Positions 1-61,862 of a stretch of DNA of 64,000 bases are shown piece by piece. Each line of letters begins with the position of its first letter. Position 1 is the first letter of the stretch. Location of the stretch: assembly GCA_964462215.1 (NCBI GenBank), contig CAYWVZ010000005.1, positions 2,592-66,591 on the forward strand, given 5' to 3'. The position numbers were made by a program, and so were the translations under genes. The notes below the pieces were generated by a model. It ran no database searches. It was given only the letters and a program-made list of their open reading frames with translations, and was not told the DNA's origin. Source of the DNA: an uncultured Candidatus Saccharibacteria bacterium. Lineage in GTDB: Bacteria > Patescibacteriota > Saccharimonadia > Saccharimonadales > JAUPVS01.

Positions 1-3000
1 GTGGGCGCAACCGGCCAAACGTTCACCCTGCAGGGTGATGCCGCCAGTACCCTTACGGCCACTGGCGGCGGCTTTACAACCACTATTGGTTTTAACGGTA
101 CGCCAACTGGCAATGTAGCGTACAATTTTGACCGCTCGGTAACGGCCGGAACGTATACTATTTGTACAACCTATGGCAACTGTTCCGGTACCGGCGGCGG
201 GGTAACCACACCCGGCGGTACAACCGGCCGGATTGCTAAATTCACCGGCAGCTCAGTTATTGGCGACTCCATTTTGAGTGAAGCCGGCAGCGTCATAACG
301 GTGCTGGGCGACGCAGTTGTCCAGGGTGGCAGCCTGAGCGTGGGCGAGGCCAGCACCACCACCGGCGGCATAACGCTGTACAACGACACCAACGGCAACA
401 CGATCACGCTGCAAGCCGGGGCTACCGGCGGCAACCTGACCTTTACCTTGCCGACGGCCGACGGCACCAGCGGGCAATGTATCAAGACCGATGGCTTTGG
501 TAACTTTAGCTTTGGCGACTGTCTGGGCGGCGGAGGCGGCGGAGTCGCTTCGCTGAACGGTTTGACCGGTACGCTAAACATTTTGGGTGCGGCCGGCCAG
601 ATTACGGTTACCCCGGGCGGTTCGGACATTACTATTGCGCTTGACGATACGGCGGTAACACCAGGCAGTTATGGCAGCGCCAGCGCGGTAGCCACCTTCA
701 CGGTTGACCAGCAAGGCCGCCTAACCGCCGCTACCACCACCAGCATAGCCATTGACGCCAACCAGATTACGACAGGGACGCTGACGGTAGAGCGGGGCGG
801 CACGGGCGCCGGCACCTTTACCAGCGGCGGTATCCTCTACGGCAATGGCACCGGCGCCATCCAGGCTATGCCAGTACTGACCAACGGACAATTGCTGATA
901 GGCGACGGCAGCGGCGCACCCACCGCCGCAACTCTGACCCAAGGTACCGGCATAGACATCACCAACGGGGCAGGCAGTATCACGGTAGCCGTAGATACCA
1001 CCTACTTTGGCAGTAATTACTTCGCCCAAGACGGCAACAGCTTCGGCGCGGCGGCCATACTTGGCACTAACGACAACTTCGACCTGAACTTTGAAACGAA
1101 CGGCACGACCAAGATGACTGTGCTAGCCAACGGGAACGTGGGGATAGGAAATGCAAGCCCGCAGGCCAAGTTGCATGTTAGCGGCACAGGTCGGTTCGTA
1201 AGTGTAGGTACGGACGACTTTGCTGGCACCACCGGGTTATTTGTCCAAGCCGGCAACAGCAATACTGCTGTAAGCGCACTAACCTTAAGAAACAGGAATG
1301 CTGGTTCTGGGGCAGGGACAGATATAGATTTCAACCTGGGTGGAACCAACATGGTAATAGGGAGAATACGATATCAGCGTGATTCAGGAGGAGCATTTAC
1401 AGCATTTTATGGCTACAATGGCTCCACGGTCGCAGAACGGTTGCGAATAACCTCTAACGGAGACCTCAATATTACTGCTGGTGCCGGTACTTTACAAACT
1501 GCCGGCGTCACCCGTCTGACTAATTCCGGTGTCTTGCAAAACGTCACCAACGCTGACGCCAGCACGTTCTTTACGGGCGGCACTTTGACCGTGGCAAGAG
1601 GCGGCACCGGCATCGGCAGCGTCGGTTCAGCTGGCAGCTTGGCTTACAGCAACGGCACCACCTACGCGTTCACTGGTGTGGGCAGTGCCGGCGAATGTCT
1701 GATCAGCGACGGCGCAAACACGCCGCAATGGGGCAACTGTATCGCCGGGGCAGGCGACATACTGCAGGGTGGCAACTCCTTCGGCACCGACATGACGATT
1801 GGTACCAATGACAACTTCGCCCTGAACTTTGAGACGAACGGCACGACTAGAATGATCGTAACCAACGCCGGGGATGTTGGTATAGGCACCAGTAGCGTTA
1901 ATCCCTCCGGGTTTGGAACTCGTAGTTTGGCCGTTGCCGACACCAATACCAATGGAAGGGTACAACTGGACCTGATAGGCAATCGCTCTAGTTCGGGCAA
2001 CGTGGTCGGCCAGCTGGCTGGTTATCAAACAGCGAGTAACAGAATTGGCGCAGTTTCGTTTGTGCGCGGCACCAGTGCAAATTCGGGATACCTGCTATTT
2101 GCTACGGCGAACAGCGGCACTCTAACGGACCGTTTGTCGATTGGGCAAACGGGCAACGTCGATATATTAGGTGGTGACTTACAAACTGCCGGCGTCACTC
2201 GCCTGACTAATGCCGGTGTGCTGCAGAACGTTACGAACGCCGACGCCGGTACGTTCTTCACGGGTGGCACACTGACGGTGGCACGAGGCGGCACGGGTAT
2301 TGGCAGTGTTGGCAGCGCTGGATCCGTGGCGTTCAGCAACGGCTCAACCTACGGTTTCACCGGCGTTGGCACCTCTGGCCAATGTCTGGTTAGTGCCGGC
2401 ACTGGCACACCTACCTGGGGCGCATGTACCGGCCCGGGCGACATTTTGCAGAATGGTAACAGCTTTGGTGCTGACATGACTATTGGTACTAACGATAACT
2501 TCGCTTTGAACTTCGAGACCAACGGCACCACCAAGCTAACCGTACTGGCTAACGGCAATGTGGGTATCAACAACACTAACCCACAGACTGTCCTAGATGT
2601 TGAGGGTGTCATAACGGCGCGAGGTAACTCTGGTCAATTTGAAGCCTACAATGGTTCGGGTAACAGATACTTCAGGGTGAATACATCCGGCAACCAGGGC
2701 TACCTGGAGATTGCTAATGGTGCGGGTGCTTCACGGGTTCTACTAGATAGTAATGGTGTCTCATATTTGAATGGCGGTAGTGTAGGTATCGGCACCACTA
2801 ATCCGGCTGGTGGTAAATTAGAGGTGCGCACAAACCGTGATGTAGCCCAAGCCTTTGCAGTTACGGGGAACACGTCGTCCGAAGGTGTACGCATATTTAC
2901 AACTGATTCCTCAGCCGTAATTCATAGTTTTCAAGATGAGAGCAGTGGGTCTGCGGGTAATCTCGTAATCAGGCTGGGTGACAAGGTTGGACAAACACCA

Positions 3001-6000
3001 TTCTTTAGTGTCAACAACTACACCACAGGCTCAGACGTTAATCTTTTCCAGGTTGCCAGTAACGGTGACACCAACCTAGTCTCTGGTGCCCTCCAGACGG
3101 GCGGCACAACGCGCCTGACTAACGCCGGTGTTCTGCAAAACGTCACCAATGCCGACGCCGGTACGTTCTTCACGGGCGGTACCCTGACGGTGGCCCGTGG
3201 CGGCACGGGTATTGGTACAGTCGGCTCCGCCGGTAGCGTAGCATTTAGTAATGGCACCACCTACGGCTTCACGGCCGCTGGCACCTCCGGCCAGTGTCTG
3301 GTGAGCGCTGGCACTGGCACACCAACCTGGGGTGCCTGTACCGGCCCGGGTGACATCTTGCAGAACGGCAACAGCTTTGGTGCCGACATGACGATTGGTA
3401 CCAACGACAACTTTGCGCTGAACTTCGAGACCAACGGCACCACCAAGATGACTATAGACGCCGGTGGTAACGTTGGCATAGGCGGCAGTGCATCAAACAA
3501 GCTGACAGTGACAGGGAACACTAACATAACTGGTAACTTGGGTATTGGGCTTGCAACCTCTCCGACCGTAAAACTTTCCATAGAGGATGACATTGCTACT
3601 GCTTTTAACTCCAGCGACATTGCAGCCAGCGGCCTGCTGGCAGCAATTCGTAATGGCCAAAACAGCGTTGGTAATGCCTCTACAATACAACTTTCATCCT
3701 TTAACGCGAGAAGTACGATTAGCTCTGTCTACACCAGCACCAATAGTGCGGCCTTGGTGTTTGGTACCAATAATGGCAGTACCGCTGTGGTGGAGCGACT
3801 ACGCATTACGCCTGCCGGTAATGTAAATATCGTTAGCGGCGTGTTACAGACCGCCGGCGTCACTCGCCTGACTAGCGCTGGCGTTTTGCAGAACGTCACC
3901 AATGCCGATGCCGGGACTTTCTTCACCGGTGGCACTTTGACGGTTGCCCGTGGTGGTACCGGTATTGGCACTATAGGCAGTGCCGGTTCCGTAGCGTTTA
4001 GTAATGGCACGACTTACGGTTTCACCGGCGTCGGCACATCTGGCCAGTGTCTGGTCAGTGCCGGTGCCGGCACGCCAACCTGGGGCGCGTGTACTGGCCC
4101 GGGTGACATCTTGCAGAACGGCAACAGCTTTGGTGCTGACATGACCATCGGTACCAACGACAATTTCGCCCTTAATCTGGAAACCAATGGTACTACTAAA
4201 CTGACCGTAGGCACCAACGGTGACGTCAATATCGTGAGCGGTGTTCTGCAAACGGCCGGAACAACTCGCTTAACCAGCGCCGGCGTATTGCAAAACGTCA
4301 CCAATGCCAATGCCGCTACATTCTTTACGGGTGGTGCGCTAACTGTGCCGCGCGGCGGTACCGGCGTCGCCAGTATGACGGTAGGTGGCATCCTTTTCGG
4401 GAATGGCAGCAGTCCCATAACTAATTCCGGAGTCTTGACTAATGGTCAACTACTGATCGGTGACGGCAGCGGCGCACCAACTGTCGGTACGCTGACAGGC
4501 GGTACCGGTATCGGCGTGGTCAATGGGGCAGGGACGATTACCCTCAATCTAGCCAATACTGCAGTTACGCCCGCTTCCTACGGTTCGGCCAGCCAAGTTG
4601 CTACCTTCACCGTTGACCAGCAGGGCAGGCTGACGGCCGCCAGCAGCGTACCGATTGCCATCAATGCCAACCAAGTTACGGCCGGAACCCTAGCTATCGC
4701 TCGCGGTGGCACCAACAGTACGGCTACACCCACTGCTGGGGCTATCGCCTATGGCACCGGTTCGGCCTTTGCTTTCACTGCCGCCGGCACCAGCGGCCAG
4801 TGTCTGCTCAGTGCTGGCATTGGCGCTCCAACGTGGGGCAGTTGTAGCGGAGTCGGCGACATTGTCCAGGGCGGCAACAGCTTTGGCACAGCCATGATAA
4901 TTGGTACCAACGATAACCAAGCGTTGCAGCTCGAAACCAACGGCACCACCAAGATGACCGTGCTGCAGGGTGGGAACGTAGGAATAGGCACAACGAACCC
5001 AACCAGGAAGCTAGAAGTAGTTGGTGGTCAAATCTACACCGAGAGCACTGGAGGCCCCAGCGCCTTTATTGCTAACCGAACAGATGGAAGGGCCACTGCA
5101 CTTTTGGCTGGCAGTAGCAACTCAGCTTTCTTGTTTGATAGCAGTGGTCAGTTCCAGATACAGGCTCGTTCAAAAACGAATATTCTGGCTGGTTCGGGCA
5201 GCTCCTCGGCGGGGCTATTCACGATACTAGCTAACGGTAATGTCGGTATCGGCCCCAATATTACGCCGACGCAGCTGCTCGATGTGCAGGGCGGGAATAT
5301 TAACACTTCCGGTAATATCCTGACTGGCGGCACTACACGTTTGACCAACGCCGGTGTTCTGCAGAACGTTACCAATGCCGATGCCAGTACCTTCTTCACT
5401 GGTGGCCTGCTAGGCATAGCTCGTGGTGGTACGGGCATTGGCACTGTCGGCTCGGCCGGCAGCTTGGCCTTCAGCAATGGTAGTACCTATGCCTTTACGG
5501 CTGCTGGTTCCTCTGGCCAATGTCTGCTCAGTGCTGGTGCCGGCACCCCAACTTGGGGTAGCTGTAGCGGAGTGGGTGACATTGTCCAAGGTGGTAACTC
5601 ATTTGGTACGGTCATGACTATTGGTACCAACGACAACTTTGCCCTCAATCTAGAGACTAATGGCACGACCAAGCTTACAATTCTACCCGACGCAAGTAAT
5701 TATGTCGGCATAGGCACAACATCACCAACTGCCGGACTTCATATACTTCGTAGTGACACGCAGTTCTTGCTGATTGATAGATCTAGCAGTAACAATGCAC
5801 CCGTACAATATAGGAACACAATAGCTTCAATGTTCGCTGGTCTAGACGCTGCCGGCCACTTTGCAATTGGTCCGACTAATAACTTAAGCTCTGCTGGCCA
5901 GCTCCGAGTCCATCGTACTAGCGGAGATGTTGATGTAACCGGCGGTGCCCTGCAAACAGCCGGTACTACTCGCCTGACCAACGCTGGCGTATTACAAAAT

Positions 6001-9000
6001 GTTACCAATGCCGATATCAGTACCTTCTTTACCGGTGGTACGTTGCCGGTGGTTCGCGGTGGTACCGGTGTAACGAGCGTTGGCTCGGCTGGCAGCATTG
6101 CCTACAGTAACGGCTCTACCTACGCCTTCAGCTCGGCTGGCAGCACTGGCCAATGTCTGCTTTCGGGCGGTACCGGTTCGCCAACTTGGTCGACTTGTGC
6201 GCCGTCACCTGGCACCAGCCTTATGACTCTGCAAGGTACCAGCGGCACGCCGCAGTCTATCTTGGTGGGTGATACCGTCACAATTGCCGCCGGCACCAAC
6301 ATTACTACTACGGCCGGAGCCACCGACACCGTTACAGTGGCAGTGGTCGACAACCCGACCTTCGCGACCAGTGTTACTACCCCAGTTTTGAATGTCAGCA
6401 GCCGTATCAACGGTAATGCTTCCGACACCACTGCCGCACCAACCTACACCTGGACTGGCGACACCGCCACTGGTATCTACCGCCCAGGCGCCGGCCAGGT
6501 AGGCATAACCAGTGGTGGCACAACCATAGCGACTTTCAGTAGTACGGAAGTTAATTTATCATCCAGTGTTCGGCTTAATCTAGCAGGGGTGCCAGTGGTT
6601 GAGGGTAGTGCGGGTAGTGCTAACCCTAAGGTTTTCCGTAACCTTGCTTCATATTACTCAACGGCTAGTCCGGACACTGGTGCTATCGTTATAAAGACCA
6701 ACATACCGCGCGGTAACTTACTGAATCGTGTACGCCTGCTCGGATATGTATACGACTCTGGAAATCAATCACCTGTACTCGATGTTACTATATCGGGATA
6801 CTGGTACGATAGCGGCTACAGTTGGCCTAACCGGGGCTATGTTTATGAAGGTCGGCAGCCAAGCAACGTGCGCTTTGGTGTGGATGCCGGTGACAACGTG
6901 GTCATTATCGTAGGTGACGTGGCAGATACTTGGCACGATCCAAGCTTCCATATTACTGAATGGCTGGTGTCTAGAAACAATAGCACAGTTCCCGATTCTT
7001 ATGGTGACAATTGGGAGGTTGGTATAGAGAATGACCTTAGTGCTTACAGTAATATGTCATCTGTACCTGATACCACTAAGGGCTCCACAGCCAATCCATT
7101 CACGGCATTTAACGTAAGCGGCACCACTACATCGGGTTCGTTTATCCAAGGCGTGAACCAGGTCTGTGACGTCAGTAACAACTGTAACTACGCCACCGCC
7201 GGCCAGTTTGCCACGGCCATAGTTCAGGGCGGCAACAGCTTCGGTACTGACATGACGATCGGTACTAACGACAACTTTGACCTCAACCTTAAAACCAACG
7301 GTGTCACCCGTCTGATCATAAGAGCTAACGGTAACATCAACATACCCTCTAGCGCCCTGCAAACCGGCGGTACCACCCGCTTAACCAGCGCCGGTGTTCT
7401 GCAAAACGTCACCAACGCCAACGCTGGCACCTTCTTCACGGGCGGTACGTTGCCAAATGCCCAACTGGTCAACAGCGGTGCTTTGACGGTTACGGCTGGT
7501 ACCGGTTTGAGTGGTGGCGGGTCAGTGGCGCTAGGCGGCACCACCACGATTGACCTAGCTAACACCACGGTAGCCGCCGGTTCTTATGGTTCGGCCAGCC
7601 AGGTCGCCACCTTTACGGTTGACGCCCAAGGCCGCTTGACTGCTGCTGCGGACACCAGTATCGCCATAGATGCTACGCAAATTACCGGCGGTACGTTACC
7701 GGTTGCCCGCGGCGGTACCGGTGCCGCCACCTTTACCAGCGGCGGCATATTGTATGGCAACGGCACGGGCGCGGTGCAAGCCACACCGGTGCTGACCAAC
7801 GGCCAGTTACTCATTGGCGACGGCAGCGGCGCACCAACCGTTGGCACACTGACGCAAGGCACCGGCATAGACATTGCCAACGGCGCCGGCACTATCACCG
7901 TAGGCCTAGACACTACCTACCTTGGCAGCAACTACTTTGCCCAGGGCGGCAACAGCTTTGGCGGGGCAGCTACGCTGGGCACCAACGACAGCAACGTCTT
8001 AAACCTGGAAACTGCCGGCACCACCAAGGTAACCATAGACACCAGTGGCAACACCAATATAGTCAGCGGCGCCCTGCAAACCAACGGCACCACCCGGCTG
8101 ACTAACGGCGGCGCCCTGCAGAACATCTCTACCATTACGGCTTCCAGCACAGTTACCGCCGCGCTGTTCTCCGGCTCCGGCGCTAGCTTGACCAGCCTTA
8201 ACGCTTCTAACTTGTCATCTGGCACGGTAGCTAACGCCCGGATCAGCGGCGCCTACACTAACTTCAGCAACATTACCGGTTCCGGCAATGTAGACTTCGC
8301 CCGATTTTTGGGCAACACGGCAGACTCAGCCGGCGCCCCGAGCTTCTCGTGGACGGGCGATCCCAACACCGGCATGTACTGGATTGGCGCCGACCAGATT
8401 GGCTTCAGCACCGGCAGCGCCCTGCGCGTAGGTATAAGCAGTTCCGGTCTTGATGTAGCCAGCGGCAACCTACTAACCGGCGGCACTATCCGTGTTACGA
8501 GCGCTGGCGCTCTGCAGAACATTACCACCGTAACCACCTCCGGTGCGATTAACGGCCAAACCATCTCGTCGGCGGCAAACTTCACCGGCACCCTGAACGT
8601 GGTAACCAGCGTGACCAGCCCGACCTACAATGTCGGTACGCGCATCCAAGGTACCAATGTGGGTAGTCCTAGTGTACCGACGTACACTTGGAGCGCAAAC
8701 CCTGACACCGGTATATATTACGTTGGTATTGCTTCTGCTATCGGCTTTTCCATTGACGGCTCGCTCAAAGCGACCATTAGCACCGGCGGCTTCGGGGTTA
8801 GTGGTTCTATAAGCTTTGATCAGGCTTTAGGTCAGGGCTCATCGGGCGCGCCAACATATAGTTTTTTTAACGATACCAACACCGGTATGTACCGGGCTGG
8901 CGCCGACCAAATCGGCTTTAGTGCCGGTGGTACCACAGGAATGAGGGTCGACACCGGGGGGGTTGACGTGATTGGCGCCCTGGCAGTCACCGGTACCCAG

Positions 9001-10113
9001 ATAACAGCTGTTCCTGGCACCGGTGTGGCGAATTACGCAGCGTCATTCTACAATGGTGATGGTTCGTTTGCAACTCGGTACGGTCTGCTGGTGCAAGGTG
9101 GTCTGTCGGCCGGGACGGGAACAACCTATTATTTGACCGCTCGAGACGGGGATGGCAGCAGTGTCGGGTATCTGGCCAATATTAACGGCACCTTTGCCGT
9201 AACTGACGTATCGGATGTCCGTACTAAGACTAATATCGAGGATACCGAAGAGAACGGACTTGATGTAATAAACGGCCTGCGCGTAGTGGACTTTAACCGT
9301 ATCGACAGCCCTGGCGGCCCGCGTATCACCGGTTTCATCGCCCAAGAGGTCCAGGGTGTCTACAGCAAGGCTGTCACCGTTGGTGATGACGGTATGCTCG
9401 GCCTACAAAAAGACGCCTTTATACCGGTGCTGGTCAAAGCCGTCCAGGAGCAACAGGGTATGATAACCGCCTTGCAAGGTGATAACATCCAGCAGACCGG
9501 TACCATCGGCCAATTGGACACTCGGGTTGCCAGCCTTGAACAGCAGGTGAATAACCCGGTCTTGCCGCAGAGTGCCAACTTTGCCGACATCAACATCAGT
9601 AACTTGGCGACCATCAATACCCTGAGCGTTACCGGTTCGGCCACCATTGCTACCTTGACCGTGAGCGGTAACGCCAACGTTGGCGGCAACCTGATTGTTA
9701 GCGGCGACACCACCGTAGCCAACCTGTTCGTGCAGGGTAAGATCATCAGCCGCGGCGCCAAGCCGACGGCCGATCGCGGTACCGCCCTACAAAACGCCGA
9801 CGCCACAGCCGAGGTAGAAGTCAGCGGCACCGACAGTGCCGGTACACTGGTTATTACCACCGGCGCACTGGCCAACCCGGCTCAGCCGTTGACCAGCGGC
9901 ATCCTGGCCGAAGTCACGTTCTCGTCACCGTTCCCGGTCATGCCGCGGGTTGTCATCACGCCGACCACCGCCGACGCCGTCGGCCTGCCGGTCTTTATCG
10001 AAAAGACCGCCACCGGCTTCAAGCTAATAACCACCGGTGACCCGGTTCCGGGCATGACATATTCCTTCGATTACATAATTGTCGGCGGCGAGACCGTCAG
10101 CTCCACAAATTAA
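1..10113 (+). CDS. Giant tail-fibre-like repetitive surface protein (>3370 aa; 5' end lies outside the window) with an internal peptidase-S74-type intramolecular chaperone domain
   Basis: A single uninterrupted ORF runs from base 1 to TAA at 10111-10113. Composition is G/T/N/A-rich. Recurrent fibre-type motifs are present: GNVGIGTTNP..L.V, YGSASQVATFTVDQQGRLTAA, and P(T/S)Y(T/S)W.(G/A)D..TG(I/M)Y. An S74-like block lies near the C-terminus. Confidence 0.9.
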   Translation: MGATGQTFTLQGDAASTLTATGGGFTTTIGFNGTPTGNVAYNFDRSVTAGTYTICTTYGNCSGTGGGVTTPGGTTGRIAKFTGSSVIGDSILSEAGSVITVLGDAVVQGGSLSVGEASTTTGGITLYNDTNGNTITLQAGATGGNLTFTLPTADGTSGQCIKTDGFGNFSFGDCLGGGGGGVASLNGLTGTLNILGAAGQITVTPGGSDITIALDDTAVTPGSYGSASAVATFTVDQQGRLTAATTTSIAIDANQITTGTLTVERGGTGAGTFTSGGILYGNGTGAIQAMPVLTNGQLLIGDGSGAPTAATLTQGTGIDITNGAGSITVAVDTTYFGSNYFAQDGNSFGAAAILGTNDNFDLNFETNGTTKMTVLANGNVGIGNASPQAKLHVSGTGRFVSVGTDDFAGTTGLFVQAGNSNTAVSALTLRNRNAGSGAGTDIDFNLGGTNMVIGRIRYQRDSGGAFTAFYGYNGSTVAERLRITSNGDLNITAGAGTLQTAGVTRLTNSGVLQNVTNADASTFFTGGTLTVARGGTGIGSVGSAGSLAYSNGTTYAFTGVGSAGECLISDGANTPQWGNCIAGAGDILQGGNSFGTDMTIGTNDNFALNFETNGTTRMIVTNAGDVGIGTSSVNPSGFGTRSLAVADTNTNGRVQLDLIGNRSSSGNVVGQLAGYQTASNRIGAVSFVRGTSANSGYLLFATANSGTLTDRLSIGQTGNVDILGGDLQTAGVTRLTNAGVLQNVTNADAGTFFTGGTLTVARGGTGIGSVGSAGSVAFSNGSTYGFTGVGTSGQCLVSAGTGTPTWGACTGPGDILQNGNSFGADMTIGTNDNFALNFETNGTTKLTVLANGNVGINNTNPQTVLDVEGVITARGNSGQFEAYNGSGNRYFRVNTSGNQGYLEIANGAGASRVLLDSNGVSYLNGGSVGIGTTNPAGGKLEVRTNRDVAQAFAVTGNTSSEGVRIFTTDSSAVIHSFQDESSGSAGNLVIRLGDKVGQTPFFSVNNYTTGSDVNLFQVASNGDTNLVSGALQTGGTTRLTNAGVLQNVTNADAGTFFTGGTLTVARGGTGIGTVGSAGSVAFSNGTTYGFTAAGTSGQCLVSAGTGTPTWGACTGPGDILQNGNSFGADMTIGTNDNFALNFETNGTTKMTIDAGGNVGIGGSASNKLTVTGNTNITGNLGIGLATSPTVKLSIEDDIATAFNSSDIAASGLLAAIRNGQNSVGNASTIQLSSFNARSTISSVYTSTNSAALVFGTNNGSTAVVERLRITPAGNVNIVSGVLQTAGVTRLTSAGVLQNVTNADAGTFFTGGTLTVARGGTGIGTIGSAGSVAFSNGTTYGFTGVGTSGQCLVSAGAGTPTWGACTGPGDILQNGNSFGADMTIGTNDNFALNLETNGTTKLTVGTNGDVNIVSGVLQTAGTTRLTSAGVLQNVTNANAATFFTGGALTVPRGGTGVASMTVGGILFGNGSSPITNSGVLTNGQLLIGDGSGAPTVGTLTGGTGIGVVNGAGTITLNLANTAVTPASYGSASQVATFTVDQQGRLTAASSVPIAINANQVTAGTLAIARGGTNSTATPTAGAIAYGTGSAFAFTAAGTSGQCLLSAGIGAPTWGSCSGVGDIVQGGNSFGTAMIIGTNDNQALQLETNGTTKMTVLQGGNVGIGTTNPTRKLEVVGGQIYTESTGGPSAFIANRTDGRATALLAGSSNSAFLFDSSGQFQIQARSKTNILAGSGSSSAGLFTILANGNVGIGPNITPTQLLDVQGGNINTSGNILTGGTTRLTNAGVLQNVTNADASTFFTGGLLGIARGGTGIGTVGSAGSLAFSNGSTYAFTAAGSSGQCLLSAGAGTPTWGSCSGVGDIVQGGNSFGTVMTIGTNDNFALNLETNGTTKLTILPDASNYVGIGTTSPTAGLHILRSDTQFLLIDRSSSNNAPVQYRNTIASMFAGLDAAGHFAIGPTNNLSSAGQLRVHRTSGDVDVTGGALQTAGTTRLTNAGVLQNVTNADISTFFTGGTLPVVRGGTGVTSVGSAGSIAYSNGSTYAFSSAGSTGQCLLSGGTGSPTWSTCAPSPGTSLMTLQGTSGTPQSILVGDTVTIAAGTNITTTAGATDTVTVAVVDNPTFATSVTTPVLNVSSRINGNASDTTAAPTYTWTGDTATGIYRPGAGQVGITSGGTTIATFSSTEVNLSSSVRLNLAGVPVVEGSAGSANPKVFRNLASYYSTASPDTGAIVIKTNIPRGNLLNRVRLLGYVYDSGNQSPVLDVTISGYWYDSGYSWPNRGYVYEGRQPSNVRFGVDAGDNVVIIVGDVADTWHDPSFHITEWLVSRNNSTVPDSYGDNWEVGIENDLSAYSNMSSVPDTTKGSTANPFTAFNVSGTTTSGSFIQGVNQVCDVSNNCNYATAGQFATAIVQGGNSFGTDMTIGTNDNFDLNLKTNGVTRLIIRANGNINIPSSALQTGGTTRLTSAGVLQNVTNANAGTFFTGGTLPNAQLVNSGALTVTAGTGLSGGGSVALGGTTTIDLANTTVAAGSYGSASQVATFTVDAQGRLTAAADTSIAIDATQITGGTLPVARGGTGAATFTSGGILYGNGTGAVQATPVLTNGQLLIGDGSGAPTVGTLTQGTGIDIANGAGTITVGLDTTYLGSNYFAQGGNSFGGAATLGTNDSNVLNLETAGTTKVTIDTSGNTNIVSGALQTNGTTRLTNGGALQNISTITASSTVTAALFSGSGASLTSLNASNLSSGTVANARISGAYTNFSNITGSGNVDFARFLGNTADSAGAPSFSWTGDPNTGMYWIGADQIGFSTGSALRVGISSSGLDVASGNLLTGGTIRVTSAGALQNITTVTTSGAINGQTISSAANFTGTLNVVTSVTSPTYNVGTRIQGTNVGSPSVPTYTWSANPDTGIYYVGIASAIGFSIDGSLKATISTGGFGVSGSISFDQALGQGSSGAPTYSFFNDTNTGMYRAGADQIGFSAGGTTGMRVDTGGVDVIGALAVTGTQITAVPGTGVANYAASFYNGDGSFATRYGLLVQGGLSAGTGTTYYLTARDGDGSSVGYLANINGTFAVTDVSDVRTKTNIEDTEENGLDVINGLRVVDFNRIDSPGGPRITGFIAQEVQGVYSKAVTVGDDGMLGLQKDAFIPVLVKAVQEQQGMITALQGDNIQQTGTIGQLDTRVASLEQQVNNPVLPQSANFADINISNLATINTLSVTGSATIATLTVSGNANVGGNLIVSGDTTVANLFVQGKIISRGAKPTADRGTALQNADATAEVEVSGTDSAGTLVITTGALANPAQPLTSGILAEVTFSSPFPVMPRVVITPTTADAVGLPVFIEKTATGFKLITTGDPVPGMTYSFDYIIVGGETVSSTN
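1492..6200 (+). repeat. Seven in-frame copies of a ~130-aa coding module separated by variable-length unique inserts
   Basis: The module reads LQT.G.TRLT.AGVLQNVTNA.A.TFFTGG.L.V.RGGTG...GSAGS.A.SNG.TY.F...G.SGQCL.S.G.G.PTWG.C.G.GDI.Q.GNSFG..M.IGTNDN.AL..ETNGTT. Copies start at about 1492, 2179, 3091, 3844, 4246 (interrupted by another module), 5320 and 5950 (truncated). Further partial copies start at about 7357 and 8060. Amino acids are highly conserved, while many third codon positions differ between copies. Confidence 0.85.
9190..9555 (+). other. Peptidase S74-like intramolecular chaperone auto-processing domain, internal to the giant ORF
   Basis: The sequence reads VTDVSDVRTKTNIEDTEENGLDVINGLRVVDFNR...ITGFIAQEVQGVYSKAVTV...GLQKDAFIPVLVKAVQEQQGMITALQ...LEQQV. 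Ser (codon 9211-9213) and Lys (codon 9226-9228) have the S-x4-K spacing of the endosialidase / tail-spike C-terminal chaperone dyad. Confidence 0.7.
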
Positions 10114-53661: not shown

Positions 53662-53750
53662 GCAGAACAGGTGTGCGCGGCACCGCAAGTCCTCGCAGTC
53701 GCAAAAATGAACGACTGCCGCGGAAGGCTCTCCGCGCACACCTGTTCTGC
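53662..53750. promoter_or_regulatory. Perfect 19-bp inverted repeat (gcagaacaggtgtgcgcgg / ccgcgcacacctgttctgc) with a 51-bp spacer; each arm abuts an outward-facing TATAAT box
   Basis: The arms lie at 53662-53680 and 53732-53750. The inner spacer contains a further 7-bp inverted repeat (gcagtcg at 53695-53701 and cgactgc at 53712-53718). The flanking -10 boxes lie at 53659-53654 (minus strand) and 53751-53756 (plus strand). Confidence 0.7.
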
Positions 53751-53764
53751 TATAATGAGTGGCG

Positions 53765-54811: not shown

Positions 54812-55920
54812 ACGACGTTGTTTTAAGTGTTTCGGATTTTGTTGGTTCGCTGAACCAAACACTGGAATATGCCTATCCGAACGTGGTAATTGTTGGAGAG
54901 CTAGCCAACTTTCGCGTTAGCAAGAACCGTTGGGTGTACTTTGACCTGAAAGATGAATATGCCAGCGTGAAGTTCTTTGGTTCGGTGTATCAGCTGCCGG
55001 GGCCGTTGGAAGACGGGCTGATGCTGCACGTCCGCGGCAACCCGCGCTTGCACCCGCTATATGGCTTTAGCGTGACGGTGCAGTCGATTCAGCCGGTGGG
55101 CGAGGGGTCGCTACGCAAAGCGGCTGCCTTGTTGGAGGCCAAACTGCGGGCCGAGGGGTTGTTCGAGCCGAGCCGCAAGCGCGGGTTGCCGTACCCGCCG
55201 GCCAGTGTCGGCTTGGTGACCTCGGGCGAGTCGGCGGCTTACGCGGACTTTATGAAAATTCTGAACCGGCGCTGGGGCGGCCTGGGCGTGGAACTGGCGG
55301 ACGTGCAGGTGCAGGGCGAGGCGGCAATAGAGCAAATCGTGCGGGCTATTGAATATTTCAACGCCCAGGCCGCCCCGCCGGAGGTCCTAGTGCTGACGCG
55401 CGGCGGCGGCAGTGCCGAAGACTTGGCGGCCTTCAACACCGAGCAGGTCACCCGTGCCGTGGCGGCCAGCCGCATCCCGACATTGGTTGCCATCGGCCAC
55501 GAAGTCGACCTCAGCCTAGCCGAGCTGGCCGCCGACCAGCGCGCCAGCACGCCCAGCAACGCCGCCGAACTGCTGACTCCCGACAAGCGGCAGGTTCAGT
55601 CGCAACTGGCTTCATACCAGGCTCGCTTAGGCCAGTTCCTGCATGGTCAGGTTACTGCCGCCAAACAGCAGCTTCAGACACAAAACTTGCATCTCCAAGA
55701 CCGTTTTGACCGGTTTTTCCGCTATCAGCACGAAGCTGTGGAGCGTAAACACCAGCTGCTCGAAGCTCTCAACCCGGCTCGGGTGCTAGAACGAGGTTAC
55801 GCTGTTGTTAGTGCGCCGAGCGGCTCTATTCATTCTGTTACACAACTTCAGCCTGGTACCGAGGTGCGTATTCGTTTTAGCGATGGCCAAGCCCAAGCCA
55901 AGGTAACTAAGGTACAATAA
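54808..55920 (+). CDS. xseA: Exodeoxyribonuclease VII large subunit
   Basis: An N-terminal OB fold is present (VSDFVGSLNQTLE...VVIVGELANF), along with the TRGGGS motif and a C-terminal coiled coil. There is a GTGA overlap with the upstream gene. Confidence 0.9.
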   Translation: MNDVVLSVSDFVGSLNQTLEYAYPNVVIVGELANFRVSKNRWVYFDLKDEYASVKFFGSVYQLPGPLEDGLMLHVRGNPRLHPLYGFSVTVQSIQPVGEGSLRKAAALLEAKLRAEGLFEPSRKRGLPYPPASVGLVTSGESAAYADFMKILNRRWGGLGVELADVQVQGEAAIEQIVRAIEYFNAQAAPPEVLVLTRGGGSAEDLAAFNTEQVTRAVAASRIPTLVAIGHEVDLSLAELAADQRASTPSNAAELLTPDKRQVQSQLASYQARLGQFLHGQVTAAKQQLQTQNLHLQDRFDRFFRYQHEAVERKHQLLEALNPARVLERGYAVVSAPSGSIHSVTQLQPGTEVRIRFSDGQAQAKVTKVQ

Positions 55921-55924
55921 GGCC

Positions 55925-56125
55925 ATGGCAAAAGAAACTGTTAATTACCGAAAACTGCACGAGGAGCTGGAGGCAATCTTGGCCCGGCTTGAAACCAACG
56001 AACTGGAAGTCGAGGAGGCTATCAAGCAATACCAGCGGGGCAGCGAGATCGTTAAGCAACTGCAACAGTACCTCAAGACGGCCGAGAACAAAGTCAAGAA
56101 AGTGACCACCGAGCGCTCGGCATGA
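55925..56125 (+). CDS. xseB: Exodeoxyribonuclease VII small subunit
   Basis: It is a 66-aa helical protein (LEAILARLETNELEVEEAIKQYQRGSEIVKQLQQYL) directly downstream of xseA. Confidence 0.85.
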   Translation: MAKETVNYRKLHEELEAILARLETNELEVEEAIKQYQRGSEIVKQLQQYLKTAENKVKKVTTERSA

Positions 56126-56613
56126 TTTTCCTTATCCTCGGCGGGGTAGTGCTGTTATTCGGTTTTGTCATACTATTTGGCGCGCCGTACGTGCCGACCC
56201 TGAAACCGCAGACCAAACAAGCCCTGGACTTGTTGAACCTCAAAAAAGGCCAAACGCTGCTGGAGCTGGGTTGCGGCGACGGGCGGGTAATGCGCGCGGC
56301 GGCTGCCCGCGGGCTCACAGTGGTTGGCTACGAGCTCAATCCTATATTAGTTATAATCGCCAAAGCCGTAACCTGGAAGTACCGTACAACTACCACAGTT
56401 ATTTGGGGTAATTTCTGGCGCGCTACCTGGCCGCCAGCCGACGGCATCTTCGTCTTCCTGCTAGACAAATACATGGAAAAATTGGATAAAAAAATTGCAC
56501 ACAAGCACAAGCATGACGCGCGGCCAATCCGGCTGGTTAGCTTCACTTTTCAGATTCCCGGCCGTAAGCCTGCCAAAAAGCGCGGCGGCCTCTTTCGCTA
56601 TGATTACACCTAA
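56122..56613 (+). CDS. Class I SAM-dependent methyltransferase with an N-terminal TM helix
   Basis: The N-terminus is LILGGVVLLFGFVILFG and motif I is LLELGCGDGRV. There is an ATGA overlap with xseB. Confidence 0.65.
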   Translation: MIFLILGGVVLLFGFVILFGAPYVPTLKPQTKQALDLLNLKKGQTLLELGCGDGRVMRAAAARGLTVVGYELNPILVIIAKAVTWKYRTTTTVIWGNFWRATWPPADGIFVFLLDKYMEKLDKKIAHKHKHDARPIRLVSFTFQIPGRKPAKKRGGLFRYDYT

Positions 56614-56644
56614 ACACTTGCCTCGAGCGTCGAAGTCGTTTACC

Positions 56645-57316
56645 ATGAGCGGTATGAAGAAGCTGAATGCCCACGGGGCTATCAACGGCTTGTTGATTCC
56701 ACTGATTATGGTTGTCATCCTCCTGTTGGCCGCCGGCGCGTTTGGCGTTTGGGCCTACATGGAGCGCCAGGATTACAAAAACAACGTCGACCAAAAGATT
56801 GCCGCCGCCGTCGAGGTAGCCAAACGGCAACTGTCTTCCGAAAAAGACAACGAGTTTTTGGAAAGAGAAAAGGAACCGCTGAAAGAGTACAAAGGTCCGG
56901 CCGCTTACGGCAGCCTGGTCATAAAATACCCCAAGACGTGGGGTGCCTATGTTAGCGAGAATGCCAGCGGCAATACTCCCGTCGACGGTTACTTTAATCC
57001 GGTGTTCGTACCGGGCGTAACCGGAGAAAACTCCTACGCCCTGCGGGCCCAAATCGCAAACAGCGCCTATGCCCAAGAGATTAAAAGGTTTGATTCGCAG
57101 GTCAAGACCGGAAAAGTTTCTGCCACGCCGTACATACCGGCTAATGTGCCCGGTGTGACGGGCATGCGTTTTGACGGCGAGATTATGCCCAACAAAGTCG
57201 GCAGTATGGTGGTAGTACCAATGCGCGACAAGACACTCAAACTGTGGACCGAATCAAACAACTATCTTGGCGATTTCAACAACATTATTTTGCCCAATTA
57301 CACGTTCGAACAATAG
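56645..57316 (+). CDS. Hypothetical membrane-anchored (N-terminal TM) extracytoplasmic protein
   Basis: ATG 56645 follows the upstream stop; the ORF-track start at 56495 lies inside the methyltransferase gene. The TM helix is LLIPLIMVVILLLAAGAFGVWAY. Confidence 0.5.
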   Translation: MSGMKKLNAHGAINGLLIPLIMVVILLLAAGAFGVWAYMERQDYKNNVDQKIAAAVEVAKRQLSSEKDNEFLEREKEPLKEYKGPAAYGSLVIKYPKTWGAYVSENASGNTPVDGYFNPVFVPGVTGENSYALRAQIANSAYAQEIKRFDSQVKTGKVSATPYIPANVPGVTGMRFDGEIMPNKVGSMVVVPMRDKTLKLWTESNNYLGDFNNIILPNYTFEQ

Positions 57317-57360
57317 ACAAGTGATATACTAAAGGCATAAATACGGGGGTCGAGGGTCTT

Positions 57361-58074
57361 ATGCCTGTTCTATCATCGCCGGTGGCTACAGAGCGACTAT
57401 TGCGGGCTATGGCCGAAGAACTCAAACTGCCTTTGCTGCAGATTGCCCGCCAGGCCGAACTGGCGCAGACCGTACCGGACGAGTCGCTGCTAGAGGGGAT
57501 TGAAACTTCGGCCACCCAGGCATTGTGGTTTGTTGACAGCTACCTGTTGAGCCAGCGATTGGCCCAACAAACTAGCTTAGACCTGGAGCCGGTAGCGGTG
57601 TCGGCAGCCTTGCATGACGCTGCGCACCAGTTGGCCGGCCTGGCCAAACAGTACGATTACGAACTTGAGCTGCGCCTAAGCGGCCGTTACGAGCCGGTGA
57701 TGGCCCACGCCCGCGGCTTACGGACGGCATTAGTGGGCTTGGGGAACACGCTGATTGGCGCGGCTGATGCCGCTGCCGGAGCCGCCGCCCCGCGGCGTCT
57801 GGTTTTGGCTGCCCACAGGAGCCGGGGCGGCGTGGTAGCCGGCGTATTCTCACAAACCGAGGGCTTAAGCCAGGCAGTGTACCGCCAAGGCAAGGCGCTG
57901 TACGGCCGTACCCGCCAGCCGCTGACTGGCTTTTCGGTCCAGGGCGGCGCCGGCGTATTTATGGCCGACATTCTGTTTGCCTCGATGCAGTCACGTTTGC
58001 GGGTGGCCCGCCATCACAACTTAACCGGCCTGGCCGCCACGCTGCCGCCTAGCCGTCAGCTGGTACTTGTGTAA
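57361..58074 (+). CDS. Histidine-kinase-like protein (DHp plus degenerate HATPase_c) with no sensor/TM region and with Glu at the H-box histidine position
   Basis: The H-box-like MAEELKLPLLQI compares with the consensus SHELRTPL. The N-box-like motif is LVGLGNTLIGAA. The G2-like tail is GGAGVFMADILFASMQSRLRVARHHNLTGLAATLP. Confidence 0.5.
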   Translation: MPVLSSPVATERLLRAMAEELKLPLLQIARQAELAQTVPDESLLEGIETSATQALWFVDSYLLSQRLAQQTSLDLEPVAVSAALHDAAHQLAGLAKQYDYELELRLSGRYEPVMAHARGLRTALVGLGNTLIGAADAAAGAAAPRRLVLAAHRSRGGVVAGVFSQTEGLSQAVYRQGKALYGRTRQPLTGFSVQGGAGVFMADILFASMQSRLRVARHHNLTGLAATLPPSRQLVLV

Positions 58075-58460
58075 TGGCCGACATCCTACTGCTCGAGCCC
58101 GACCGTTTACTGGCCCGCAGTTACTGCCAGGCTCTGGCGGCAGCGGGGCACCGGCCGCACTGGCAAACCGACGCCCAGGCAGCCCTCGGCGTACTGGATG
58201 AACATGACATCGGCTTGATCGTGCTGGAATTGGAACTGGCCGGACACAACGGTGTGGAATTTTTGTACGAACTGCGCTCGTATCCGGATTGGAACCACAT
58301 CCCGATTATCTTGCACACCATGGTTGCCGCGTCACACCCCGGCTTGGGTCGAGCTTTCTGGAAAGAACTGGGGATCGCGGGCTATCAGTACAAACCCCAG
58401 ACTTCGCTAGAGCAGTTGGTTACCCGCGCAAACCGCCAGTTAAACCTGCAGACCGTATGA
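58074..58460 (+). CDS. Receiver-domain-like protein with Glu at the phospho-acceptor Asp position
   Basis: Strand 1 reads ILLLEPD. Strand 3 reads GLIVLELELAGHNG, where the consensus is D-L-x-x-L-D. The conserved Thr (PIILHT) and Lys-Pro (YQYKP) are retained. There is a TAATG overlap with the upstream gene. Confidence 0.55.
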   Translation: MADILLLEPDRLLARSYCQALAAAGHRPHWQTDAQAALGVLDEHDIGLIVLELELAGHNGVEFLYELRSYPDWNHIPIILHTMVAASHPGLGRAFWKELGIAGYQYKPQTSLEQLVTRANRQLNLQTV

Positions 58461-59146
58461 ACCAAGTCGTCACCAAAGGCATTGTTTTGACGCGCACTAA
58501 CTTCGGTGAAGCCGACCGCATCTTAACTATACTAACCCCGGACCACGGCAAAATCCGGGTCATGGCCAAGGGCGTCCGTAAGGTCAAAAGCAAACTGGCT
58601 GGCGGCATCGAGCTGTTTAGCATCAGCAACATTACCTATATTCCGGGTAAAAAAGATATTCACACACTGGTGTCAACACGATTGGACAGGCACTTTGGCA
58701 ACCTGGTTCACGACCTTACGCGGACAATGTCCGGGTATGATTTGCTCAAACAAACCAATCGGGCCACCGAAGAAGTATCCGAGCCGGAATACTTTACGGT
58801 CCTGGCAGTGGCCCTCCAGGCGTTGGACGACGGTGTTAGTCAGGCACTGGTTGAGCTGTGGTTCAACGCCCAATTACTCAAGTTGGCCGGCCACCAGCCT
58901 AATCTGACAACCGATACCACCGGCACAAAACTCGAGGCTAACAAGCTCTACACGTTCGACTTCGACAGTATGAGCTTTGCCCAAGCCGGGCAGGGGCTAC
59001 TAACGCCAGCGCATATTACGTTCCTGCGCCTGATCTTCGGTGTAGCTAATCCATCTCAACTGCAGCAAGTCCAAGACGCCGCCCGAGTCCTCGGCCCCTG
59101 CGTGCAACTTCTACTATCTTTACGTGCACAATCTGCAAATACGTGA
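58457..59146 (+). CDS. recO: DNA repair protein RecO
   Basis: An N-terminal OB fold is present (GIVLTRTNFGEADRILTILTPDHGKIRVMAKGVRK). There is an ATGA overlap with the upstream gene. The ORF-track start at 58289 is rejected. Confidence 0.8.
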   Translation: MNQVVTKGIVLTRTNFGEADRILTILTPDHGKIRVMAKGVRKVKSKLAGGIELFSISNITYIPGKKDIHTLVSTRLDRHFGNLVHDLTRTMSGYDLLKQTNRATEEVSEPEYFTVLAVALQALDDGVSQALVELWFNAQLLKLAGHQPNLTTDTTGTKLEANKLYTFDFDSMSFAQAGQGLLTPAHITFLRLIFGVANPSQLQQVQDAARVLGPCVQLLLSLRAQSANT

Positions 59147-59162
59147 TATAACTAACACATCT

Positions 59163-59423
59163 ATGAACGAAAGAGTGCAAAAAATTGCTGCCGTAGGTGC
59201 TGGGTTAGCAGTTGCCGGCGGCACCTATATGGGCGTAGAGGCTTTGAGCGACGAACTGGCAGCCCACCATGAAACGGTTCTGGCCGTAGCGGGGATAGGC
59301 TTAATCGGCTATGGCTTAAGTATAGAAAAACCGTTTGTATGGGCCTACCGCGGCATCCGAAACAGAACACAACAGCGCCTTGGCAACCTGGCCGTCCCCG
59401 AACAAACTGAAGAAACACCCTAA
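59163..59423 (+). CDS. Small hypothetical two-TM protein (86 aa)
   Basis: The two hydrophobic helices are IAAVGAGLAVAGG and VLAVAGIGLIGYGL. TATAAC at 59147-59152 lies 10 nt upstream of the ATG. Confidence 0.45.
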   Translation: MNERVQKIAAVGAGLAVAGGTYMGVEALSDELAAHHETVLAVAGIGLIGYGLSIEKPFVWAYRGIRNRTQQRLGNLAVPEQTEETP

Positions 59424-59467
59424 GTTTTATCCGGCACAGATACATATACCCTACAGATGGCGTCTGT

Positions 59468-59473
59468 TATAAT
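59468..59473 (+). promoter_or_regulatory. TATAAT box 8 nt upstream of the glyQS ATG (leaderless-type)
   Basis: The sequence reads ctgtTATAATacggcgtaATG. Confidence 0.4.
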
Positions 59474-59481
59474 ACGGCGTA

Positions 59482-60825
59482 ATGAGCGCTAACGACCAAA
59501 AAGTATCCATGGAAGATATTGTATCGCTGTGCAAACGCCGCGGGTTTGTATTTCAGGCCTCAGAGATTTACGGTGGTTTAGCTGGTTTTTGGGACTACGG
59601 CCCGTTAGGGGTGGAGCTAGCTACTAAAATAAAGGCTGAATGGTGGAAAGCTACGGTCACTGAAAATGATAATATCTTTGGCGTGGACGGAGCGATTATC
59701 CAGAACCCCAAGCTTTGGGAGGCCAGCGGCCACATTGCCGGCTTTACCGACCCGATGGTCGAAGACCCGGTAACACACAAGCGCTACCGTGCTGATCATA
59801 TGGCTGGTGTTGATTCGACCAATCTCGAGGAATTGTCCAAGCTATTGAAAGACAAAAAATCACCAGATGGTAATCCACTCAGCGAGCCGCGCTACTTTAA
59901 CATGATGCTTAAAACCTGGGTCGGGGCGGTAGAAGATGAATCATCGGTAGCTTACTTGCGGCCGGAGACCGCTGGCTCCATCTTTACTAATTATGAAAAT
60001 GTGCGTGAGACTATGCGCGCCAAAATACCATTTGGTATCGCCCAGATAGGTAAGGCCTTTCGTAACGAAATTAGTCCCCGTGATTTCATCTTCCGGGTTC
60101 GCGAATTGGAACAGATGGAGATGCAATATTTTATCAAGCCGGACACGCAAGCCGAGACATACGAGCAGTGGCGCCAGTTTGCGTGGAAGTTTTTAATCGA
60201 GAACCTCGGTGTGGCCGAGAAGAACCTGCAGTGGCATGAACACAACGAAGACGAACGGGCACATTATGCCGCCGCGGCGCACGATATCTACTTCAATTTC
60301 CCGCAAGGTTTTAAAGAATTGTGGGGCACGCATAACCGCACTGATTTCGACCTCAGCAACCATGCCCGCGTTAGCGGCAAAGACCTGTCATACTTTGATG
60401 AAACCACGCGCGAGCGTTTTACGCCCTATGTGATTGAATCATCAGTCGGTGTGGGCCGTATGTTCCTGGCTGTTTTGACCGACGCGTATCATGAAGAAGA
60501 GGTTAACGGCGAGAAGCGGGTGGTACTTAAACTCAAGCCGGAGCTGGCGCCGTACCGGTTTGCCGTCAGCCCATTGCTTAAAAATAAACCCGAACTGGTT
60601 GCAAAAGCCCGCGAAGTTTACCAGGTGCTTAAAGCCAAATACGGCAACGTCATGTGGGACGACAACGGCAACATCGGCAAACGCTACCGCCGCCAAGACG
60701 AGATCGGTACGCCGCAATGCGTGGTCATCGACTTCGATACGTTAGAGGACGGCACCGTCACCGTCCGCGACCGCGACACCACCAAACAAAAACGCGTCGA
60801 CATCACAAGCTTGTTTAGGGATTAA
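59482..60825 (+). CDS. glyQS: Glycyl-tRNA synthetase, homodimeric (alpha2) type
   Basis: The N-terminus reads CKRRGFVFQASEIYGGLAGFWDYGPLG, followed by a class II core and a C-terminal anticodon-binding domain. Confidence 0.95.
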   Translation: MSANDQKVSMEDIVSLCKRRGFVFQASEIYGGLAGFWDYGPLGVELATKIKAEWWKATVTENDNIFGVDGAIIQNPKLWEASGHIAGFTDPMVEDPVTHKRYRADHMAGVDSTNLEELSKLLKDKKSPDGNPLSEPRYFNMMLKTWVGAVEDESSVAYLRPETAGSIFTNYENVRETMRAKIPFGIAQIGKAFRNEISPRDFIFRVRELEQMEMQYFIKPDTQAETYEQWRQFAWKFLIENLGVAEKNLQWHEHNEDERAHYAAAAHDIYFNFPQGFKELWGTHNRTDFDLSNHARVSGKDLSYFDETTRERFTPYVIESSVGVGRMFLAVLTDAYHEEEVNGEKRVVLKLKPELAPYRFAVSPLLKNKPELVAKAREVYQVLKAKYGNVMWDDNGNIGKRYRRQDEIGTPQCVVIDFDTLEDGTVTVRDRDTTKQKRVDITSLFRD

Positions 60826-60880
60826 CCCCTCAGCCAGTATTTCTAAGTACTTTTTAATAAGTCGTTGCTAGGCTTGGTGT

Positions 60881-61258: not shown

Positions 61259-61312
61259 CGTCCCGAAGGGCTTATGCTTGCGTTGCTACCTCTGTCGCAC
61301 TACACTGTAACC

Positions 61313-61855: not shown

Positions 61856-61862
61856 GGAGAGG

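Follow-up and report, generated by a model that had tools for sequence, protein, structure and literature searches.

Two overlapping genes on the plus strand of a 64,000-nucleotide stretch of DNA from an uncultured Candidatus Saccharibacteria bacterium (contig CAYWVZ010000005.1 of assembly GCA_964462215.1; the whole stretch is hereafter the window) encode a 237-residue protein related to histidine kinases (57361..58074) and a 128-residue single-domain receiver that has no output domain (58074..58460). Our analysis showed that both proteins descend from two-component proteins, that neither is capable of phosphotransfer, and that the two are inherited and translated together. The explanation that we favor, and consider reasonably probable, is that they form a phosphorylation-independent complex of a pseudo-kinase and a pseudo-receiver descended from an OmpR/EnvZ-type system. 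A first-pass annotation, made from the sequence and its open reading frames (ORFs) alone, had placed glutamate at both phosphorylation sites and had proposed that the pair may be a phosphorylation-independent, constitutively "on-mimic" signaling or scaffold module; how these proposals fared is given below with the results that bear on them.

Folds and active-site residues of the two proteins

The kinase-like protein escapes routine domain annotation. Scanning it against Pfam produced no match even at E<10, so that the HisKA and HATPase_c gathering thresholds were not reached, and the NCBIfam scan returned just CreC (E 0.008), far under the cut-off. Because these libraries gave nothing useful, homology was established through family profiles and folds. 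A profile of 40 relatives matched CpxA in the PDB (E 7e-5), and a profile of 150 broader relatives matched a hybrid kinase (3e-9), CpxA (2e-8), DivL (1e-7), and HK853 (5e-5), together with a further PDB kinase over columns 10-217 (6e-8). When a profile of divergent members was run against 5.8 billion proteins, the sequences retrieved beyond the family were canonical HAMP-HisKA-HATPase_c kinases (E 2e-9 to 8e-4), and the canonical proteins most closely related to the family are kinases of HAMP-HisKA-HATPase architecture that pair with OmpR-type regulators. The two nearest canonical kinases were considered as members of the recO locus described below and were ruled out, as they lie in ordinary regulator-kinase operons elsewhere. 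The AlphaFold2 (AF2) model of the kinase-like protein (predicted local distance difference test, pLDDT, 88; predicted template-modeling score, pTM, 0.85) has two long helices (residues 7-37 and 41-69) and then an alpha/beta domain, and Foldseek matched it to HK853 with E 8e-11 over 238 columns and to DivL with template-modeling (TM) scores of 0.69-0.72. The best fold matches in the PDB are whole cytoplasmic cores, namely those of HK853, DivL, EnvZ chimeras, CusS, CpxA, RetS, and ChpT (4fpp). By model and fold search, the protein has the hairpin of a dimerization and histidine phosphotransfer (DHp) four-helix bundle (residues 7-69; 57379..57567) and then a catalytic and ATP-binding (CA)-like domain of Bergerat fold (residues 76-237; 57586..58071), and its homology to histidine kinases is secure. 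It had been described as lacking any transmembrane or sensor region, and this was borne out: the stop-to-stop frame opens at 57325 and offers at most 12 additional codons, so no hidden N-terminal sensor lies upstream, and the highest Kyte-Doolittle mean over 19 residues is only 1.29, so no transmembrane segment is expected. No hydrophobic stretch fit for a membrane helix was found in either the kinase-like or the receiver-like protein.

The residues that would support kinase chemistry have been lost from this fold. The H-box stretch MAEELKLPLLQI aligns with the SHELRTPL of CpxA (AEELKLPL against SHELRTPL) and sets Glu19 (codon GAA, 57415..57417) on His248. This correspondence was obtained from the single sequence, from the family profiles (E 7e-5 improving to 2e-8), from hhalign, and from a hidden Markov model (HMM) of canonical kinases, and every alignment made puts Glu19 on the phospho-His, as had been proposed by eye. 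The H-box remnant within the hairpin, AEELKLPLLQIARQAE, lies in a context common to canonical kinases, with an acidic residue at H+1, a basic residue at H+3, and Pro at H+5, counted from the phospho-His. The phosphatase motif of HisKA proteins consists of a Thr or Asn at H+4, and this position is occupied by Leu23. In full-length hhalign alignments with CpxA, EnvZ, and PhoR, the N-box Asn (CpxA Asn360) corresponds to Thr130 and the G1 Asp (DxGxG) to Ser164, and the G2 glycines are kept as Gly196 and Gly198; to the degenerate N-box and G2-box elements noted earlier, the loss of the G1 Asp can be added. In CpxA, roles have been assigned to His248, Glu249, and Asn360, the last of which is essential for autophosphorylation (PMC3904827). 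No conserved His was found in residues 1-75 (the DHp helices) of the kinase-like family, which does not fit a ChpT/Spo0B-type phosphotransferase. Judged from these alignments, the protein keeps a kinase fold that is stripped of the residues with which it could bind ATP, autophosphorylate, transfer phosphate, or serve as a phosphatase; a kinase fold in which the phospho-site and/or ATP binding is lost is a pseudo-histidine kinase. One CpxA chain in the PDB, 4biz_A, reads SEELRTPL, with Glu at the phospho-His, where SHELRTPL stands in the other CpxA entries; of the CpxA sequences, 4biz scores highest against the family profile, above wild-type CpxA, and a reason for its His-to-Glu substitution was not found in PMC3904827.

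The receiver-like protein scored 37.3 bits against PF00072 (gathering score 30.2), its AF2 model is a (beta-alpha)5 domain with a pLDDT of 92, and Foldseek gave TM scores of 0.8-0.9 to RR468, PmrA, VicR, DivK, and PhoB. Pairwise alignments to FleR, ArcA, PhoB, and CpxR place Glu8 on the first acid and Pro9 on the second, metal-binding acid (codons of Glu8-Pro9-Asp10, 58095..58103, aligned to E9-D10 of PhoB), Glu52 (codon GAA, 58227..58229) on the phospho-Asp, and Thr82 (58317..58319) and Lys107 (58392..58394, followed by Pro108) on the conserved Thr and Lys. Tyr104 is retained as the aromatic switch residue. The catalytic quintet DD-D-T-K is thus represented by E8-P9 in place of the paired acids and E52 in place of the acceptor, with T82 and K107 retained. 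A domain that PF00072 recognizes and in which the phospho-acceptor Asp is gone is an aspartate-less receiver (definition in PMC12632262), and among such receivers Glu most often takes the place of the Asp, and as a rule the first acid and the Lys stay while the second acid disappears (PMC4395418, PMC12632262). The receiver matches included PDB 2jb9, the constitutively active PhoB D10A/D53E, in which the same two positions are changed as in P9 and E52. The HMM comparison that had been named beforehand as a check on the first-pass annotation therefore upheld it for both proteins: the Response_reg threshold was passed, the kinase profiles were significant, and neither His nor Asp stood at the catalytic positions.

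The two ORFs and their translational coupling are as originally described, with the TAA stop of the kinase-like gene sharing one nucleotide with the ATG of the receiver-like gene. The TGA stop of the latter overlaps the ATG of recO (58457..59146, plus strand; matches to RecO_N, RecO_C, and TIGR00613) by 4 nucleotides as ATGA, in keeping with the co-directional recO reported downstream. A scan of 53500-61000 for promoters and terminators yielded nothing better than shuffled sequence, so the operon structure is read from overlaps and synteny only.

Conservation of the pair across Saccharibacteria

Both proteins have hundreds of relatives, and the named ones all come from Saccharibacteria. An exhaustive search of cluster representatives recovered kinase-like relatives in 265 clusters at 50% identity (E<1e-30), all of about 230-250 residues, and relatives occurred in 145 GTDB species (one genome per species), nearly all of them labeled Saccharibacteria, Saccharimonadales, or Patescibacteria. 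The pair is a Saccharibacteria-wide family and not a one-off. NCBI product names for these relatives are "hypothetical protein" for the kinase-like and "response regulator" for the receiver-like member; a weak Pfam match to HisKA was seen in 8 of 150 kinase-like relatives, and one to HATPase_c in a single relative of the 150. The receiver-like gene directly follows the kinase-like gene in every assessable locus (81/81 from genomes and 68/68 from metagenomes), five flagged exceptions to the metagenome adjacency being artefacts of unbounded ORF starts. The gene after the receiver-like gene is recO in 76 of 77 loci, with the 4-nucleotide overlap in 59 of these 76, and the gene immediately before the kinase-like gene encodes a homologue of the window's membrane-anchored protein in at least 75 of 83 loci. 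The usual order is LPG_synthase_TM, xseA, xseB, (methyltransferase), membrane-anchored protein, kinase-like, receiver-like, recO, 0-2 small genes, and glyS. With xseA and xseB a few genes upstream and recO directly downstream, the pair sits amid DNA-repair genes, which reflects either function or inherited gene order.

Residues at the two sites were counted in columns of close homologues (120 sequences for each protein; mean column identity about 50%) and in a pooled set of 146 non-redundant kinase-like/receiver-like pairs. As a guard against motif-retrieval bias, metagenomes were sampled with a DNA pattern for the receiver alpha3 helix, which covers neither site, and all 120 loci sampled in this way held the family receiver. 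Pooled counts for the kinase-like protein were used to residue 136, beyond which an insertion shifts positions, and those further positions were taken from other family alignments. Among the close homologues, Glu occupied position 19 in 113/120 and position 52 in 117/120. The pooled pairs (kinase-like/receiver-like) were Glu/Glu in 117 cases, Asp/Asp in 7, Glu/Asp in 4, His/Glu in 4, and Asp/Glu in 3, with few others, and the His/Asp combination was found in 0/146. This family-wide absence, in proteins that both lack their phospho-acceptors, bore out the proposal of a phosphorylation-independent module. The survey of orthologues that had been called for gave a divided answer for the two Glu residues: receiver position 52 is strictly acidic (E 132, D 12; 144/146), whereas kinase-like position 19 tolerates more residues (E 122, D 11, H 4, A 3, L 2, Q 2, G 1, Y 1), so that Glu at the kinase-like His position is favored without being required. 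Elsewhere in the receiver, position 8 is Glu in 144/146, position 9 is Pro in 137/146 and otherwise Ser or Thr but never acidic, position 82 is Thr or Ser in 139/146, and position 107 is Lys in 145/146; in the kinase-like protein, Asn at N-box position 130 was found in 0/146 family members. The receivers with Asp52 still carry Pro, Ser, or Thr at the metal-binding position, and their partners are without His.

The residues most often found at position 19 in place of Glu (Gln, Asp, and His) are single-nucleotide neighbors along the route by which a codon for His would turn into one for Glu, a pattern that would fit descent from His. We looked for a living ancestor that keeps His together with Asp and found four members with His19, all of them with a Glu receiver and a dead CA domain. 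Eleven loci fall into one clade with Asp at position 19 and mostly Asp at receiver position 52, which could represent either a matched change at both sites or a single phylogenetic event. In one clade, both sides have switched to Asp, a hint that the two sites may be matched; as independent evidence, this covariation (7 pairs) was discounted, because the pairs form one neighbor-joining clade and amount to approximately one event.

Conservation beyond the two sites is concentrated in defined regions. The most conserved stretch of the kinase-like family follows position 19, with K22, P24, L25, L26, Q27, I28, A29, R30, A32, and E33 each conserved at 90% or above. The CA-like domain matches the DHp in its degree of conservation and holds a conserved lid-like stretch, L180-x-G182-x-x-R185-Q186-P187. 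The best-conserved parts of the receiver are the active-site loops, the beta5-alpha5 loop (K107-P108-Q109-T110), and a near-invariant alpha3 (E62, E66, R68, and S69). In complexes of kinases with their regulators, such as HK853-RR468, the active-site loops, the beta5-alpha5 loop, and helix alpha1 of the receiver face the DHp. The pattern seen here, with conservation in the DHp helix after residue 19, the receiver loops, and alpha3, fits interaction surfaces better than catalysis, and the presumed interface is nearly invariant.

A published transposon sequencing (Tn-seq) study of Southlakia epibionticum provides phenotypes for genes in the same positions, as the same gene order is present there at SEML1_0245-0249 (PMC10633639 Tables S1, S2). 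SEML1_0245, a hypothetical protein with a Mog1p/PsbP-like model, is class I essential and essential at all time points (PMC10633639). SEML1_0246, which has weak Pfam matches to HisKA and HATPase_c and is named "HAMP domain-containing histidine kinase," received the calls GD, GD, and ES as its insertions fell from 8 to 3 to 1; SEML1_0247, a response regulator of 366 nucleotides, received NE, GD, and ES as insertions fell from 2 to 1 to 0, and both genes are scored as essential at T2 (PMC10633639). SEML1_0249 is glyS and essential, while SEML1_0248 is recO and tolerated insertions (25, 36, and 29) (PMC10633639), so the depletion of SEML1_0246 and SEML1_0247 is unlikely to be polar on recO. These same-position genes are not discussed in that paper (PMC10633639). 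SEML1_0246 and SEML1_0247 are tied to the present family by synteny and size only, as SEML1_0245 is to the membrane-anchored protein of the window by synteny only, and the transfer of the phenotype is provisional. A homology search with divergent family members returned no Southlakia or TM7x sequence, and matching SEML1 gene lengths against family loci gave no identical locus.

The proposed complex and the alternatives

We propose that the two genes are the stripped core of a former OmpR/EnvZ-type two-component system. The closest sequence relatives of both proteins are CpxA/CpxR, EnvZ/OmpR, and PhoR/PhoB, and the canonical HAMP-HisKA-HATPase_c/OmpR systems possess transmembrane, HAMP, and sensor parts, catalytic His, Asn, and Asp residues, and a DNA-binding output, all of which are absent here, where the canonical gene order of regulator and then kinase is also reversed. 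The ancestral kinase would have lost its sensor, HAMP, and transmembrane parts and the regulator its DNA-binding domain, which would leave two mutually recognizing surfaces. The kinase-like protein probably dimerizes via the DHp hairpin, and the receiver-like protein, co-translated with it and with recO, may dock on its partner as a regulator does on a kinase, via alpha1 and the active-site loops, to give a stable complex independent of phosphorylation. Such independence is the natural conclusion from the loss of the phospho-acceptors and of the Mg-ATP-binding and phosphatase residues, together with the absence of any His/Asp pair. Glu52 and the loss of the second acid mirror PhoB D10A/D53E, and with the T/Y/K switch kept, the receiver is probably held in an "activated-like" state; by this analogy, the earlier "on-mimic" idea is plausible, though, like the scaffold role, it is still a proposal. 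Because neither protein has an output domain, the output must be protein-protein interaction, and no enzymatic or DNA-binding output would be expected. The candidate surfaces for these contacts are the receiver alpha3, which could touch either the CA-like domain or an external partner, and the remodeled CA-like domain.

Several considerations weigh against this explanation. Mutual binding is something we infer, and genetic linkage (every assessable locus in genomes and metagenomes) is the evidence for it. The occurrence of D, H, A, L, Q, G, and Y at position 19 makes it unlikely that a strict mimic of phospho-His is essential, and a pair of Glu side chains in apposition would repel one another unless a cation, a Lys, or an Arg formed a bridge between them. 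The CA-like pocket might bind some ligand, which would make the protein a sensor and not a passive scaffold. Finally, the weak HisKA and HATPase_c matches of SEML1_0246 suggest that this gene may be less degenerate than the family in the window.

The alternative that survives best, although we consider it unlikely, is a ligand-sensing pseudokinase in a reversed pathway of the DivL kind, in which the CA-like domain or the DHp would sense a small molecule or a protein state and the binding or release of the receiver would be the regulated switch. DivL, the archetypal pseudo-kinase that binds a single-domain regulator, works in this way with DivK (PMC4211667), and it is among the best matches of the kinase-like protein by both fold and profile. 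The DivL-DivK system resembles the present pair in its DHp and CA fold without a phosphorylatable His, its stand-alone receiver partner, and its use of binding instead of phosphotransfer, which for the present pair is our deduction. The conservation of the CA-like domain at the level of the DHp, including the lid-like motif, and the one family member with Tyr at position 19 also favor such a switch. DivL, however, carries PAS domains and a membrane anchor, and its residue at the His site is Tyr, whereas in the kinase-like protein PAS or other sensor domains are absent and no ligand-binding motif was recognized. Moreover, DivK is a true receiver whose phosphorylation DivL reads; the receiver here is dead and not phosphorylatable, which leaves no obvious variable for sensing of this type. 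The DivL and DivK genes form no fixed operon pair, unlike the two genes described here, which are both dead, both minimal, and always adjacent.

An improbable alternative is that the proteins act as decoys or insulators that titrate or buffer genuine phosphotransfer, the dead kinase by binding true receivers or the dead receiver by binding true kinases. A possible target exists in the window: the stand-alone receiver at 50285-50707 scored 87.6 bits against PF00072 with its DD, D, T, and K intact, as the first-pass annotation had stated, and this canonical orphan, which has no neighboring kinase, lies 7 kb upstream of the pair. RetS, which is among the fold matches of the kinase-like model, is an example of a pseudo-kinase whose targets are other kinases. 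The annotation had gone on to conclude that the organism uses normal phosphotransfer; the only basis for this is the one canonical receiver, and no canonical kinase was found in the 64,000 nucleotides. Against a decoy, the invariable adjacency and co-inheritance of the two dead genes (149/149 assessable loci) argue that they are each other's partners, and the Thr/Asn of the phosphatase motif is gone. In addition, the canonical receiver and a canonical PAS kinase/regulator pair of Southlakia are non-essential, whereas the same-position pair, if orthologous, is essential.

Even less probable is a residual non-canonical chemistry, such as phosphorylation or methylation of Glu, phosphotransfer through a different His or Asp, or phosphorylation of the receiver-like protein on Ser/Thr. 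The retention of Asp10, Thr/Ser82, and Lys107 and the Asp52 of 12 of the 146 receivers could be taken in its favor, and methylation of Glu or other modification of aspartate-less receivers has been raised as a possibility (PMC4395418). The DHp helices, however, hold no conserved His, the ATP-binding residues are absent from every family member, and the Asp52 receivers have neither an acid at the metal site nor a partner with His. A phosphate shuttle of the ChpT/Spo0B type meets similar objections: those proteins share with the kinase-like protein a DHp-like dimerization hairpin and a CA-like domain that no longer binds ATP, but they keep the His and pass phosphate between receivers, whereas here the His is absent in 142/146 and the partner receiver cannot accept phosphate. 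The notion of decaying pseudogenes or a chance resemblance without function, suggested by the missing catalytic residues and the lack of a Pfam match for the kinase-like protein, has practically no probability left, having been refuted by family conservation, with intact ORFs in hundreds of species-level lineages (the 265 clusters and 145 GTDB species), strong sequence conservation, confident models, and a gene order kept in very reduced genomes.

Gene neighborhood and implications

The co-directional membrane-anchored protein reported upstream of the pair was confirmed (56645..57316, plus strand; start uncertain between the ATG at 56645 and that at 56654). It has one N-terminal transmembrane helix, an extracytoplasmic domain, and a cytoplasmic tail of just about 15 residues, and no Pfam or NCBIfam match was found for it. 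The protein is possibly part of the module, and it might be an extracytoplasmic partner of the dead pair. The canonical receiver closes a cell-division and wall cluster at 44451-50707 that also comprises FtsE, FtsX, a PcsB-like protein with a coiled coil and a CHAP hydrolase domain, an S41/PDZ CtpB-like protease, and pyrG; the order CHAP, S41, receiver is found again in Southlakia at SEML1_0236-0238, where the receiver is non-essential (PMC10633639). A giant ORF (1..10113; at least 3370 residues) runs past the start of the window and has as its sole Pfam match a Peptidase_S74 intramolecular-chaperone domain near the C-terminus; ORFs of 323 and 1433 residues without Pfam matches follow it, and the ORFs of this region (1-15419) look like giant surface or adhesin-type proteins. 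Past glyS, at 60881-63716, there are an HTH_3 protein with an N-terminal extension, an unknown 193-residue ORF overlapping an NYN-domain protein, a DUF1761 protein, and a DNA-alkylation-repair protein; the NYN gene after glyS is also present in another locus of the family.

Each half of the pair is of a known kind, the one a pseudo-kinase and the other an aspartate-less receiver; what is new is the strictly paired, sensor-less, and output-less arrangement beside recO with Glu on both sides. The receiver shares with ChxR, the plant PRRs, the fungal Rim15p, and PhoB D10A/D53E the PF00072 domain, the Glu at the Asp position, the first acid and the Lys, and the loss of the second acid (PMC4395418, PMC12632262), but it differs from other aspartate-less receivers in being bare and encoded beside a matching dead kinase. 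The Asp is missing from about 2% of receivers and the His from about 0.9% of HisKA domains, and just two of the 20 bacterial atypical regulators reviewed are not orphans (PMC12632262). Our literature search found no description of a matched pair of dead kinase and dead receiver, nor of two-component signaling in Saccharibacteria. We entertain, tentatively and with considerable doubt, the further proposal that this pair is the first whose two cognate members, kinase and receiver alike, are pseudoenzymes and still together, locked near the geometry of the phosphotransfer state with Glu19 and Glu52 bridged by a cation or by Lys107, and that it is an essential structural or regulatory adaptor of Saccharibacteria. 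If true, the frozen complex could serve the control of the cell envelope or of division, or the transition between mother and swarmer, and it may work with the essential PsbP-like membrane protein encoded upstream.

Pseudo-receivers are common yet poorly understood, and pseudo-histidine kinases are rare; a pair whose halves are both dead, and which is nevertheless always inherited together, gives natural material for studying the role of the kinase-receiver interface once phosphate has been removed. As the kinase-like protein is named a hypothetical protein and is invisible to Pfam, its recognition also closes a gap in the annotation of several hundred lineages or more. Regulation in Saccharibacteria episymbionts is almost unknown (PMC11665869). 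These organisms shed nearly everything non-essential; that they retain the pair, and that the same-position genes seem to be essential in the genetically tractable Southlakia epibionticum, argues for an important and unstudied function.

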